Source: Lingula anatina
Taxonomy: Eukaryota; Animalia; Brachiopoda
NCBI GenBank assembly: GCA_051362555.1
Contig: CM120641.1
Coordinates: 5,580,001 to 5,644,000 of the forward strand
Reading direction: 5' to 3'
DNA: 64,000 bases
Shown here: positions 41,301-50,300 of the stretch, one piece after another
How the letters are laid out: every line of letters begins with the position of its first letter
Position numbering within the stretch: position 1 is the first letter of the stretch
Notes under the pieces: model-generated
Databases searched by the model: none
Seen by the model: only the letters and a program-made list of their open reading frames with translations
Told to the model about the DNA's origin: nothing
Program-made: the position numbers and the translations under genes

Positions 41301-44300
41301 GTTCAGAAACCACTGGATGTCAGTCACAACATATTGTTCAGGTGTGTCTTTCAGAAAAACTACTTTGCCCTAAAAAAATAAAAAAGAAGGGGAAACAAAA
41401 TATATTTATAACTACAATTTAAGAGTGTAATACTATAATTTAAGAGTGTATTACAGAAAAAACAAATTCAAAAATCTGACATAAACTTATTTTAAACTAG
41501 TTTGTAATGAGAGTGATTTTTCTGTTAACCATATACATGTACATCCATCCATCCATCTACTGATTGCTACCATTTACTCAGTATAAACAGATATCATACC
41601 TGGTAGTATTCTAATAAAATACACTTCAATTCACTACTTGACAAGAGTTTATTTGCACTGGATCTCATTTGCCAAAATATCAGTTAAGTTTTCTCATTTA
41701 AATGGTTACTTACCATTCTGTCAAGCCTGCTGAGTGCCTGAGCATAAGCTGCCGGATTAGCACCAAATGGTTTCTCCTTCAACTCTGACACCAGTTTGTC
41801 CAGTGAGCATATTCTGTGGTTTGGGAGGGCCTTTGAAATATCCATAAATGGTCCAGAGAACTCTAAACTTTGCTCAAAATTCATTCCAACAGCATTTGAG
41901 CATAATGCTGATAGTCTTGACAGCAAAAATGCTGCACCCTGAAACAGAGTGACATTAACAAATACTTTAAAATGACATAACCATATGCATGTAAGGGGTG
42001 GTGTCAGCAACCATTAATTTTATGTATAAAAGTTTTAAAATCGAACAGAATAAAGAGATCATCTTAAACTTCTTTTATCAAATTTTATCAAGTTTTCCAT
42101 TTTTGACCCCATGATTACTACACAATTTAAATAAAAAAATAAAGTTTAGTTTGACACATGGCTATATAGTTTATTACAAAAGAAGATATGAAGGATAAAT
42201 AAGGTACTATCAGATGGTCCCAAGCCTAAATCAAAGTCTATTAAATTAATTACAGAAAGAAAAGGATAGTTAACACAATAGATATCTGTGTGTGTGTGTG
42301 TGTGTGTGTGTGTGTGTGTGTGCGTGCATGTGTGGGTGCATGCATGCATGTGTGTGTGTGTGTGTGTGTGTGCGTGTGTGTGTGTGAACGAATGCACACA
42401 TTCCTCTATGCTACAGTACACCTCCTGTCTTATTTAATTTTCAGGTGTTTGTACACGTAATTGTGTGTGCTGTAGTATGGTAATGAGCACATCCATAACA
42501 GGTGTTAAAATGAGTTTAAAGTGCAATACCTGTCCATATTCTATGATGTTCGACACATTGGATTCTTTAGATGTTGCGTATTTTATCTTCCCATAGGCAT
42601 ATACAGCATGCACCCACACATGAAAAGCTACACCTGCATTTGATACTACAGCAATCTGGAAAACAAAAGCAATCAAATATTTTTTACACAAACTACTAAA
42701 AGAACCAATAACTTTTATTTTCTATTTCCTTTATTCTTTTAGATAAGAGTAAATGATTCAAATAATGAGAAAGCATCTCAGTGGTTTTTATTCAAACAAT
42801 TTGCATTTTAGTGTTCTCTTTTATTCAACTAAAATTTCCAAGGAGAACCAAATGCTGTCTAATAAAAATAATATTTGGATTTCACAATATCAAGAAAATT
42901 TTTGATAAATTAACCAAACTCCTACCTTTGATTCAGTGAATCTTTCATCATTGATATACGCCTCAATTTCTGCCATTTGCTCTTCTGTAACAGTGTCCTA
43001 AAATAAAATATTTTCACAAAATGAGGTGCATTATTCAAATATATATTTTTTAAAAACACTGGAGTCTTGGGAATACATACATTAAATTATATTGAAATGC
43101 ATCACAACTGCTTTCTTATAATGTGGATATTTAAATTATCCAACCTGGTATTATCATAAACAAAGTTGCCAAAGTTTTGAGAAAAAAATGTACGTCAACA
43201 TCTAAAACCTTACCAGTTCATAAGAATGCATATCCCTCAGGAAGGAAAAACTTGAGATAAGTTTCTTTGCTGTTGGCCACCATTTACTAGCATCACTGCT
43301 ATCTTCTACTGTCTTGGGCTACCAAAAGCAATGAAAATGTGTTAATATGAGAGAGAGAGAGAGAGAGAGAGAGAGAGAGAGAGAGAGAGAGAGAGAGAGA
43401 GAGAGAGAGAGAGAGAGAGAGAGAGAGAGAGAGAGAGAGAGAGAGAGAGAGAGAGAGAGAGAGTCAATTCTCTCTTGCTTGCTGTTAATACTAATCTTAT
43501 AATAAATATATAATAAAAAATTCATATTTGAAAATTTAGTACTTAAAAGTGAAAAAATATCTATCCATTAAAGAATATCATCAAATGTGTCATCGATAAG
43601 GGGAAAAAAAATCTAAATTTCTCCCCTTTTTTACTCTAGTCTTCATCACTTACAACCAACATGACAGACATGCATTTATGCAAAAGAACCTACTTACTCT
43701 CTGATTTAAAAGAATACACAATGCCCTTGTGCATTCAAGTACGGCAACTGGTGGTTTAGAATAAGACTTTAGCTAAAAGATAGAAAAGTATCTATAAATC
43801 ATTTCATTAAGAATAAACTCTTATAATGCTTTTAGAACAAGTTGATCCACTTACTAACTGATCCATGGATTAAATATGGCCGACCCACTTAAAAACAATG
43901 CCTTAATGGGCTCCCCACTTCAACATGTGCCATCCTAGCAATTAAACCTCAGAGCCGAAATTTAAATCATCTAATTCATAGGCTCCTGCAGGCCATGTGG
44001 TAAGTGGGGAGGCCTCAAGGAGATTAGCAGCATCACTTTCAAAGGGGTTGAAAATATTTGTTCCGCAACCAGTTAGTTTGAGGATCATCTCTTCTGAATG
44101 CAGCCTGGGTAATACAATACAATGAAAATAAAATAAATGTTATACCATGAAAAATGCATGTCACTTCTATACAACGACTGTAAATAACTTAAATGAGAAT
44201 CCTTATGAAAATCTGACTGCAACTTTAACGCACCCTCAAACAACAGAATCAATAACATTTTGACAAGTATCTTTAAAGTGCAACCTGGTGTGAATGCAAT

Positions 44301-47300: not shown

Positions 47301-50300
47301 GGAAAAACCATTTTAACAAAATGTGCAAACTTCTTTTCTACATTAAATTAAAATAATGTGAGTTGCAATTGATTCTAACAATCCTAACCTTTAATGTTTT
47401 TACATCCACAGAAACCATCGTGTATACAGTTCTACTCTCAGCAGTATAAAGGGAACGTTTGTATCTTTCCTGATATTCAAAGTCCTCTTCATTAACTCTG
47501 AAAAAAAACACCACCATATCATAATAGTTTAGAAATATCACAAGCTTATAAACATGTAAGCAATGATAATCATAATAGATATGTCACTAACTTGTAATTT
47601 AATTATATAATCATTATAGTTTACTTTGTCTCCTATTTTGATATATCTATAAAAAAAACTGGCATGTTTTGCCAAGTTATTTTATCATTAAAATATCTTA
47701 TAACCACTGCAAAGCCGTTGTTACAAAAAATATATGGCCTCATATCTAATGTTTATATCAATATTAGACACTGAATACATTTAACAAATTATAAGCAATA
47801 AATATCTTCATAAACTGGAAATGATGAGGGACAATGATATTCATTTTATATATAAGTCAATGTGTAGCTCACTTGCTCCAATGCTCTGCTGCTAAATGCT
47901 GCTTTAGGCTCTCTGCCGTCTGCTTCAGTTGTGCATCCAGATCCAGGTTAAGACGGGATATTTGTTCTTCAATGGAACCAGCAGTTGTTTGCCCAGGGGA
48001 GTCCTCATAGAGGATCACAATCATTATGGGAGCATGGTTGACCTAGAAATGAAATAACCCTACTCATAGTCTGAATTCGACAAGCCATGTTTTATTCATT
48101 TATATATTTTTCTCTTTTATTTCTAAAATGTTTAAGTTTTCTCACAAAGAAATTTGCTTATTGAGGCCAACTGGTCTATATCTGGCTGTCAATGCTTAAT
48201 TCTAAAAATTAGGAGAAAGACATTTTGGTAAACACTGTAAAATAACCAAAGGCATGCAAAAACAATGTGGTCGGGCCTTAACTTAGACTTAAACAAGCTT
48301 CACTCTGTTAAAAATGGAATAAATAGAAAAATTATGTATATTTTACATGTCCTCTGATAACATCAATCTTGTTCATAATTTTCAACTGTAAATCATCAGC
48401 TGAATTGAAGTCTATGAGAAGAACAAAAGCAGCACTCTCAGTTGTAAATGGAACACTGTCTGAGGACATCTAGAGAAAAAAAAGAATTACTCATTATTTT
48501 CATAAAAATTGATATTTGGGGCATATCATTAAAACAGGTTTCATTCAAATTGACTGACAGAAAGATATATTCTAAGAGATGATGTAATCAATTATATTCA
48601 TACCCATGAAAATATTTTACAAGAATTTTTAGATCACAGTACATTAGAAATTTTTACAATACATTACAAAGATGCACATACTATAAAGGTATCACAACAA
48701 AACATGTTTCACTTACACTATATCCCTTAGTTTCAATCACATTCAAGAGGAACTCCACATCATTTTCAGAAACGGAATTGGAATTTGACAGGGAAAAATT
48801 TGATAGATAATCATTACCAAACTGTGTTAATTCTTGTTCATTATCACAGCGCTCAAATTTTCCTGTCCTCAAAAATTCCGTGAACTTATAATCACAGTCT
48901 TGCCTCCTGAACACCACTAGTTTTCTCTCATGTCCTTGACTCTCACGTTGACATTCATCTGAAATATTGGGTATTTAATTCATCAAATTGACACTGACTG
49001 TGATACATTGAGGTAAATTACTGGACATCTATTATTGATATGTGTATTGACAAATTGAATTACTTTTTATTGTTTTAACAATTTAGTATTCCAAAAAATA
49101 ATTATTATTGTGTAGGTTTGTTATATTCTAAAGCAATAGCAAAAAACTTCCAATTTGTTACTTTCAAACCTTAAACCACATACTGATGCATTTAAGACAA
49201 TAGAAAAAGATTACAAAATAATGATGTCAAATAAATTCCACTGCTCCATACTCATAGGTAAAATTCTTTAAATTCTTTATTCCTTCTCTGAGTTCATAGC
49301 ATTACTGTACATAGAGAATTCTGGATCAGTAGCTGAAGACCACCCTGAGTCCCACAGTTTACTGGAGACCATCAATAGACACTGCAAAGACATACTGTAC
49401 ATACAGAAACAGGCTTCCAGTAAACTCTGACACTCAGGGTCCTGCAGACCAATCTCAGTCTATAGGAGAGATGCTATATAAATGAACAGCTTACTGAATG
49501 TGCTGTTATCATACTGTGCAGGATCATACAGTGGGCACCCATCAACAGTAATCTTGCAGGTGTTTCCTATGCTGGTAGGTATATAGCCCACACTGGTCCC
49601 TGACACACTGACATGCTGTAACCCTGTGCAGAACAACTGCAGGTACTTCAGGGACTCATCTGTCAGGTGGGGACAGCCATCAAAGGAAACCTTGAAAGAT
49701 ATAACAGTGTTTAAGAACCAAAATTGAAATCAACATGTTTTTTTTTTTTTTGTACATGTCAGACATTCAGACATGCTGCAAACTTTTCAGAACTGCCAGA
49801 CATTTGGACCGGCAGTGATGAAAAATATGCCGGACCTAATAGACTAAGTACAATTTTTTACCAGTCCAGAGAAATTTTGCCAGTCATGAAAGATTGGACA
49901 GACAGTTTCAGCATGTCTCCATGTGCATGTATCAGGTGAAAATCCACCACTGAGTGTGTGCATACATGTGTTTATGTTAGGACATCGATTCATTTATGTG
50001 TGTGAGTAATGAGGTCAGATATTAAGTAACACCTCAAATGACAATCTGATGTTTAGTAACCAAAACTGATTTTTTATTTCAACTGACAGGTTTTGTCAAC
50101 TTTTGCAGTACACACAAAACTCACAAAAAAAAGTTCCACATATCTTATTATAAGTTTAAATCAAAGTCAGTTCTACTCAAGGCTGCAAAGTAACAATTAA
50201 ACAAGCATGGAATTTGTAGTTTTTATTATCTCTTTGATTCCAGTGTGTGTGCATGTGTACGTGTGCAACCTACTGAAACTCACATGTTCTAAATCCTGAA

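Follow-up and report, generated by a model that had tools for sequence, protein, structure and literature searches.

What is a microtubule-binding domain (MTBD) of the dynein type doing inside a GTPase-like domain of a signalling protein, and has it taken over the switching that this domain appears to have lost? The question is raised by a window of 64,000 nucleotides of intron-rich animal DNA from the brachiopod Lingula anatina (contig CM120641.1 of assembly GCA_051362555.1, positions 5,580,001 to 5,644,000), in which a single gene on the minus strand, running from 51142 to 20329, encodes a tandem ROCO-TIR protein. A preliminary description had read positions 41714..48957 as a pseudo-GTPase ROC domain with the MTBD inserted in its G5 loop, and had proposed that microtubule binding rather than GTP could switch the module. 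The gene structure, the duplicated first unit, its motif loss, the homology of the MTBD and the insertion site are established by sequence, profiles and predicted models. The feature is real and conserved, and the function we infer from it is, by a narrow balance of probability, that of a passive tether keeping the protein on microtubules on a pseudo-GTPase scaffold; we rank this reading above a decoy or passenger domain, and the latter above a substitute switch.

Among the homologues found by search is P0081 (Lingula anatina LOC106176900, 3,044 amino acids (aa)), with which the gene agrees exon by exon. In a protein-guided exon map the 45 exons are free of stops, are bounded by canonical GT-AG introns and show 24 differences from P0081 across 2,907 aa; the last exon, read separately from this map, brings the total to 46 coding exons. 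From its N-terminus the protein consists of leucine-rich repeats (LRRs), the pseudo-ROC with the MTBD inside it, a degenerate COR, a Cys-rich/beta region, further LRRs, an intact ROC, a COR and two TIR domains. Pfam places 14 hits on P0081, including MT (PF12777, aa 450-568), LRRs, Roc, COR-A, COR-B and TIR, with neither a kinase family nor an AAA domain among them; it is TIR domains that follow the COR. Pfam searches of 39 single open stretches had no match in the N-terminal unit, where the exons are too short, and exon 14 alone found no relatives as a homologue-search query.

The exons of the first unit, all on the minus strand, can be assigned as follows. Exons 2-3 (49495..50502, aa 65-202) encode the N-terminal LRRs and an LRR cap, which aligns to the cap preceding the second ROC and is kept in homologues, while exons 4-7 (47389..48958, aa 203-417) encode beta1 to beta6 of the pseudo-ROC together with an extra helical hairpin. 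The insert begins with exon 8 (46925..47017, aa 418-448), a linker and helix leading into the MTBD that are placed by the model and an RNA joint, and the dynein-type MTBD itself occupies exons 9-13 (42530..44361, aa 449-591; PF12777, structural alignment and an RNA joint). Exon 14 (41714..41938, aa 592-666) supplies, according to the model, the helix alpha5 that ends the pseudo-ROC and the start of COR-A, and exons 15-19 (38204..41369) supply the degenerate COR-A and COR-B, as identified by profile comparison and structural alignment.

Raw RNA reads from eight runs of the same species, shallow (~1x) and covering the joints above 43,470, match the predicted exon joints 5/6, 6/7, 7/8 and 9/10, nearly all on the strand of the gene. 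The exon 7/8 joint (47389/47017) is present in 5/8 runs and the exon 9/10 joint (44311/43772) in 3/8. An artefact of the gene model, in which a dynein fragment or a separate intronic gene has been wrongly joined to the ROCO gene, is very improbable: the RNA depth is indeed low, the exon 8/9 joint is not among the RNA joints listed at this ~1x depth, joints 10-14 lie outside the RNA coverage and intron 8 holds a transcribed element with promoter-like sequence, but the six insert exons are all in frame with canonical splice sites, reads on the gene's strand cross the joints to either side of 8/9 (7/8 and 9/10), and the same fusion recurs in six other species that were annotated independently.

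The first unit is a degenerate copy of the second ROC-COR. With an N-terminal profile built from 43 insert-free units, hhalign matches the N-terminal unit to the family's second LRR-cap-ROC-COR with 98.2% probability (E 3.8e-14, 443 columns), and the ROC alone matches the second ROC with 85.5% probability in profile-profile comparison, compared with 0.2% for a TIR control. The homology is visible only by profile-profile and fold comparison: a HMMER profile of the second ROC-COR gives the Lingula N-terminal unit ~2 bits with or without the insert, and Pfam Roc/COR models alone have no match to the N-terminal unit of P0081. The earlier expectation that this unit would align both to the gene's own second ROC-COR and to Roc/COR models thus holds for the former, by profile-profile alignment, while the Pfam models are blind to it. 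On the level of the fold, a model of the insert-free first unit of Ptychodera (predicted template modelling score (pTM) 0.73) has LRRK1, LRRK2 and Chlorobium Roco (CtRoco) as its top Foldseek matches (E to 8.5e-15, template modelling (TM) score 0.54), and COR-B of the Lingula model aligns to 3dpu (Z 13.2, root-mean-square deviation (rmsd) 1.5, 96 aligned). The profile match and the Ras-like fold in the models bear out the view that the N-terminal half keeps a ROC scaffold. The peptides on which that view was built are all located on the minus strand, with RKLVVFRRQD at 48926-48897, PFTTESAAFVLLIDFN at 48451-48404, HAPIMIVILYED at 48036-48001 and YTMVSVDVKT at 47424-47395; those quoted from the intact ROC lie at 27316-26389.

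The counts of nucleotide-binding motifs rest on the 51 proteins that had an alignable N-terminal unit among the 132 then fetched. The P-loop GxxxxGK[ST] occurs in 1/51 first ROCs (Trichoplax only) and in 51/51 second ROCs, and the G3 pattern DxxG in 0/51 first ROCs; a loose G4 pattern matched 10/51 first units, where by inspection only the Trichoplax match lies at beta5. The Lingula pseudo-ROC has no P-loop, G3 or G4 motif, and the loss of nucleotide motifs that had been described for it extends to 50/51 first ROCs for the P-loop and to all of them for G3. Judged by these motifs, the first ROC would be a pseudo-GTPase without GTP binding, and the pseudo-ROC-COR presumably acts as a scaffold. 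Because the ROC is degenerate in 44/45 insert-free relatives as well, its decay is independent of the insert. An extra helical hairpin of ~45 residues between beta5 and beta6, overlooked in the preliminary description, is present in both the Lingula and the Ptychodera models and is family-wide. The first ROC of Trichoplax P0123 (aa ~190-300), the only one with a P-loop and a G4-like motif, may be an extant intermediate in which both G domains work.

In the Lingula model beta6 comprises aa 406-412 and alpha5 aa 592-616, with the MTBD between them, and many small GTPases span model residues ~25-426 in structural alignment (Z 8.2-9.9), which means that their last helix is aligned beyond the MTBD; the proposed insertion between beta6 and alpha5 of a Ras-like fold is therefore seen in the model. 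On the far side of the split G5 segment, IIEYGQ (42547-42530) is joined to GAAFLLSRL (41938-41912), also on the minus strand. The loop of insert-free relatives is contiguous through beta6, loop and alpha5, as in Ptychodera (FEVYDINPVSGQGMDKL) and likewise in Branchiostoma (IKVISVDESQGAEKLL). From a conserved helix motif to the COR-A glycine there are 80-136 aa in 43/46 insert-free members (387, 209 and 38 aa in the other three) and 230-289 aa in five MTBD carriers. The insert corresponds to exons 8-13, six in-frame phase-0 exons that encode 173-174 aa and not the ~195 aa first given, and removal of these exons would, judging from the spacing, restore the usual loop.

The shared phase of these exons was rejected as proof of exon shuffling, since it is weak evidence where 31/44 introns are phase 0. 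The best cut in Lingula falls at 415/590 and the exon-boundary cut ranks 26 of 961, the scores lying only 2-3 bits apart. The insertion site in Mytilus agrees to within about ten residues; a different insertion point there was considered and set aside, as keeping the strand before vs. after the insert scores 73.3 vs. 73.2 bits and is not resolved. This part of the pseudo-ROC also holds different large inserts in P0090 (Mizuhopecten, a segment of 387 aa) and P0100 (Tubulanus, 209 aa), which suggests an insertion-tolerant zone.

The insert itself is clearly of the dynein type. It matches PF12777 with E 2.5e-8 and 33.8 bits, compared with a cut-off of 24, and its predicted six-helix fold aligns to five dynein MTBD structures with Z 15-18.6, among them DNAH1 8i3j (Z 18.6, rmsd 3.6, 152 aligned) and 3err (Z 18.5, rmsd 2.7). 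The predicted local distance difference test (pLDDT) is mostly 88-96 in the core and 73-79 across the ~10 extra residues that the Lingula domain carries at the H2-H3 flap position. The best sequence matches of the ROCO MTBDs are axonemal inner-arm dyneins. In the alignment the H1 signature retains its lysine in 8/8 copies, its glutamate in 8/8 and the next basic residue in 7/8, and the H3 signature is kept as well. We take the H1 lysine to occupy the position of dynein K3299, and the equivalences of contact residues in H1, H3 and H6 are in part assumed in the same way. In dynein, K3299 in H1 contacts tubulin, the MTBD as a whole contacts tubulin by H1, H3 and H6, and the registry of the stalk sets affinity, according to the accessible part of that study (10.1101/590786). 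By its retained residues the insert would be predicted to bind microtubules.

Dynein-type MTBDs outside motors are seen elsewhere. Many proteins among P0144-P0293 consist of motor-free tandem repeats of the domain, and 76/155 fetched MTBD-bearing proteins have 2-5 copies; such tandem-repeat proteins may form a class of microtubule-binding proteins that has yet to be described. The MTBD region of the model also aligns, with Z 9.0, to 9ya2_L from the Toxoplasma intraconoidal microtubule, and further to 9e5c_2e (Z 8.6) and 9fqr_Xl (Z 10.5); these chains, on which literature searches turned up nothing, could be non-motor MTBD-like proteins on microtubules.

Could the insert then be an allosteric microtubule sensor, in which binding moves H1 and the flanks, pulls on beta6 and alpha5 and thereby switches the COR and the downstream ROC-TIR? 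Its location would suit such a role, as the insertion interrupts the G domain just ahead of the alpha5 leading into COR, in the loop by which active GTPases contact guanine, and Mytilus uses the same local site. It also fits that H1, the best-conserved part of the ROCO MTBD, corresponds to the moving element of dynein (10.1101/590786, in the part available). However, the first ROC is degenerate irrespective of the insert, an intact second ROC is present, and the flanking helices are short, differ from species to species and are attached through low-confidence linkers; we consider a sensor of this kind quite unlikely. The original proposal, with microtubule binding in the place of GTP as the switch, is not supported, on similar grounds: degeneracy of the first ROC does not depend on the insert, and G1 and G3 are present in the second ROC of 51/51 members. 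The setting of the MTBD also differs from that in dynein, as the linkers between the short flanking helices and the ROC (aa 424-434 and 579-590) have pLDDT <50, unlike a long registry-shifting coiled coil. The Lingula model comes from a 20-row alignment, however, and low pLDDT is then no proof of flexibility, so that the allosteric reading keeps a small probability.

In the passive tether that we favour, the MTBD would hold the protein on microtubules through the pseudo-ROC, and the intact second ROC would stay the GTP switch for the TIR output. We read the insert as a tether on an existing scaffold because the ROC is degenerate almost throughout the insert-free relatives and an intact ROC follows. 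The tether is favoured further by the retention of the insert in Lingula, Lineus, Capitella, Owenia and three Mytilus species with a conserved H1 signature, by the occurrence elsewhere of MTBDs without a motor, the multi-copy proteins mentioned above being a case in point, and by the parallel with LRRK2, whose microtubule-binding ROC is described below.

Several observations weigh against the tether or the model on which it is built. A basic residue follows the conserved H6 serine in 1/7 ROCO copies vs. 5/6 dyneins, the Capitella model has no H6, and the ROCO MTBDs are long branches with only 21-39% identity between genera. The Lingula model is mediocre (mean pLDDT 59.5, pTM 0.42), with values of 38-60 in alpha5 and mostly <50 in COR-A; its GTPase matches are middling, at the Z of 8.2-9.9 given above, and Foldseek with this model returned dyneins and COR, with no small GTPase among the matches listed. 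The insert is absent from 45/50 scored members, and the core function of the family therefore does not need it. Lastly, the strongest microtubule density of LRRK2, a ROCO protein discussed below, comes from two patches other than the one on alpha5 (PMC9758056, accessible part).

The eroded basic residues of H6 also speak for an integrated decoy or a non-microtubule interaction domain, that is, bait for a dynein-targeting partner or pathogen protein, or a tolerated passenger. Plant NLR receptors carry integrated decoy domains. In the present family the accessory domains MBT, SPRY, PLAT, C2 and TPR are swapped among paralogues, two relatives have other large inserts in this region (segments of 387 and 209 aa vs. 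80-136), and the LRR+GTPase+TIR layout has been proposed as immune in Aplysia (PMC9334734, in its accessible part), all of which would be compatible with a decoy. Yet the contact-type residues of H1 persist in four phyla, no partner is known, and a pure passenger would hardly have kept its frame and its fold over such a time. We regard this explanation as unlikely, albeit less so than the sensor.

The MTBD profile is positive in 5/132 proteins (Lingula, Lineus, Capitella, Owenia and Mytilus galloprovincialis), and M. californianus and M. edulis also carry the insert, such that the carriers are a brachiopod, a nemertean (Lineus), two annelids (Capitella and Owenia) and mussels, in four phyla. 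The MTBD is joined to a pseudo-ROC in P0217, for which the protein atlas gives only a low-score Ras/Roc lead (0.76), and to COR-A sequence in P0293. In a 73-row tree of the host proteins, based on the second ROC-COR-TIR, an N-terminally truncated Paralvinella model groups with the four carriers that are not molluscs (support 99), and Mytilus is nested in a 16-member mollusc paralogue clade (support 100) whose other members are without the insert. A single clade for all six is rejected by the approximately unbiased (AU) test with p 6e-50, two long branches being omitted and the group having been named after the first tree. The insert label takes 2 changes over 50 scored rows (21 unscored), and a single gain costs 6 losses.

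The tree of the MTBDs does not reject one clade (AU p 0.197). It is compatible with one origin, and transfer of the MTBD between paralogues is therefore possible; separate dynein donors, which we had considered, are not shown by it. The best PDB match is DNAH10-like for the Mytilus MTBD and DNAH6/DHC2 for the other carriers, which is only a hint of separate donors. The history we infer is one of duplication, decay and MTBD gain: an early duplication of LRR-ROC-COR would have given two units, of which the first still has a P-loop in Trichoplax; the first ROC would then have decayed, freeing its G5 loop for inserts; and a block of six phase-0 exons with the MTBD would have landed there. In P0105 (Owenia) an extra ~120-aa segment at aa ~650-770 contains an apparent repeat of the COR-A start.

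The intact second ROC (26254..27438) carries the motifs GLGGAGKTS, WDFAGQ, VGTHAD and VSS (PF08477, E 2e-22) and is followed by COR-A, COR-B and two TIR domains identified by Pfam (23490..25916), all on the minus strand; in P0081 the ROC-COR lies at 1849-1967 (PF08477), 2022-2159 (PF16095) and 2177-2316 (PF25497). It matches LRRK2 and bacterial Roco with E 1e-35 to 1e-44, and G1, G3, G4 and G5 are kept in 51, 51, 48 and 48 of 51 members. Within the TIR region (23490-24833) the first TIR is without the conserved glutamate and the second has it. The glutamate of the S..C..E pattern, which we take to be the catalytic position of TIR NADases, is found in the second TIR of 101/105 members and the first TIR of 8/105, and in Lingula only in the second. 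By this residue the second TIR would be an NADase-type signalling domain, and for TIR as for ROC the protein may combine one dead copy with one live copy. A role in immune signalling is probable. Roco proteins are described as dimerising via COR (PMC6337361, accessible part), and by analogy the first COR could pair with the second.

Intron 8 contains a non-coding DNA element of 2.1 kb (44660..46785) with perfect 19-nt terminal inverted repeats, which P0081 skips and which is the source of most RNA reads there, with loose RNA ends at both borders. RNA from copies of the element is abundant; it includes a joint spliced on the plus strand (45518/46016), and a form with an internal deletion (44851/46709) is seen as well. 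A frame within it (46747-46565) and a possible 9-nt microexon near 44,435 were rejected as extra insert exons, both being absent from P0081. The neighbouring genes are a katanin con80-domain gene directly upstream (54116-55581, minus strand), IFT140 (2144-8743, minus strand), a short-chain reductase (13414-13662, plus strand) and UQCC2 (58434-58814, plus strand); that two of these are microtubule or cilia genes is probably a coincidence in animal DNA. Arrays of a 159-161-nt unit lie at 5895-6281, 14682-15826 and 33941-34568, and sequence at ~17-19 kb is duplicated in opposite orientation at ~31-33 kb.

It is useful to set the protein beside known systems. The LRR-ROC-COR order of the ROCO family (LRRK1, LRRK2, MFHAS1, Chlorobium Roco) is the same in both Lingula units, but the Lingula protein has a pair of ROC-COR units, of which the first lacks G motifs and bears the extra hairpin, as well as a TIR pair and the MTBD insert. 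It lacks the kinase domain of the LRRKs, although database labels say otherwise. With the stalk/MTBD of dynein heavy chains (PF12777) the insert has the six-helix fold and the H1 and H3 signatures in common; unlike a heavy chain, its host is Ras-like and has neither an AAA+ ring nor a long coiled-coil stalk, and the H6 basics are mostly lost. Among pseudo-GTPases and tandem G-domain proteins, p190RhoGAP, the dynein light intermediate chain and Miro likewise keep a G fold as a scaffold beside an active G domain; to our knowledge none of the three is a ROC-COR protein or has an MTBD insert.

Trichoplax TRIADDRAFT_57945 (P0123) and the Aplysia ROCO-TIR-MBT protein (P0093) belong to the same family as the Lingula protein. 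A Ras-like domain N-terminal of the ROC was noted in the former in 2014 (PMC4104024), and Aplysia ROCO-TIR proteins with MBT or EF-hand were listed as possible immune receptors (PMC9334734); in their accessible parts these papers do not treat the N-terminal domain as a duplicated ROC-COR and mention neither decay outside Trichoplax nor an MTBD. Algal ROC domains with non-conserved inserts have been described, the word "dynein" being absent from the accessible text (PMC11378527). Database entries already bear the PF12777 tag, and we found no report of an MTBD insert in a ROCO protein or of a family-wide pseudo-ROC-COR in the literature covered, a scope outside which most subscription journals and all supplements fall. 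The ROC of LRRK2 binds microtubules, and one of the patches facing them is KLRK 1499-1502 (PMC9758056, accessible part). This patch aligns to alpha5 directly after G5, adjoining the insertion site. LRRK2 uses surface charge on an active ROC, whereas the Lingula protein has a borrowed folded domain on a degenerate ROC, for which binding is predicted. A broader scenario, which we hold to be doubtful, is that an animal TIR-GTPase receptor family captured the dynein foot twice in the same loop of a dead ROC, that it reads the state of the microtubule or cilium into TIR signalling as a sensor of infection or damage gated by microtubules, and that it converges on the LRRK2 ROC-microtubule contact.

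The dynein MTBD is usually studied as the tip of a motor, and here it is a folded, conserved insert of a non-motor signalling protein in four phyla, which offers a natural test of how the domain behaves without ring and stalk. The ROCO field gains a widespread tandem architecture of pseudo-ROC-COR and ROC-COR, and, LRRK2 having given the first hint that ROC domains are placed on microtubules, a second one that is independent of it. If it is true that binding gates the TIR domains, this family would provide a direct link from microtubule or cilium state to innate signalling in invertebrates.

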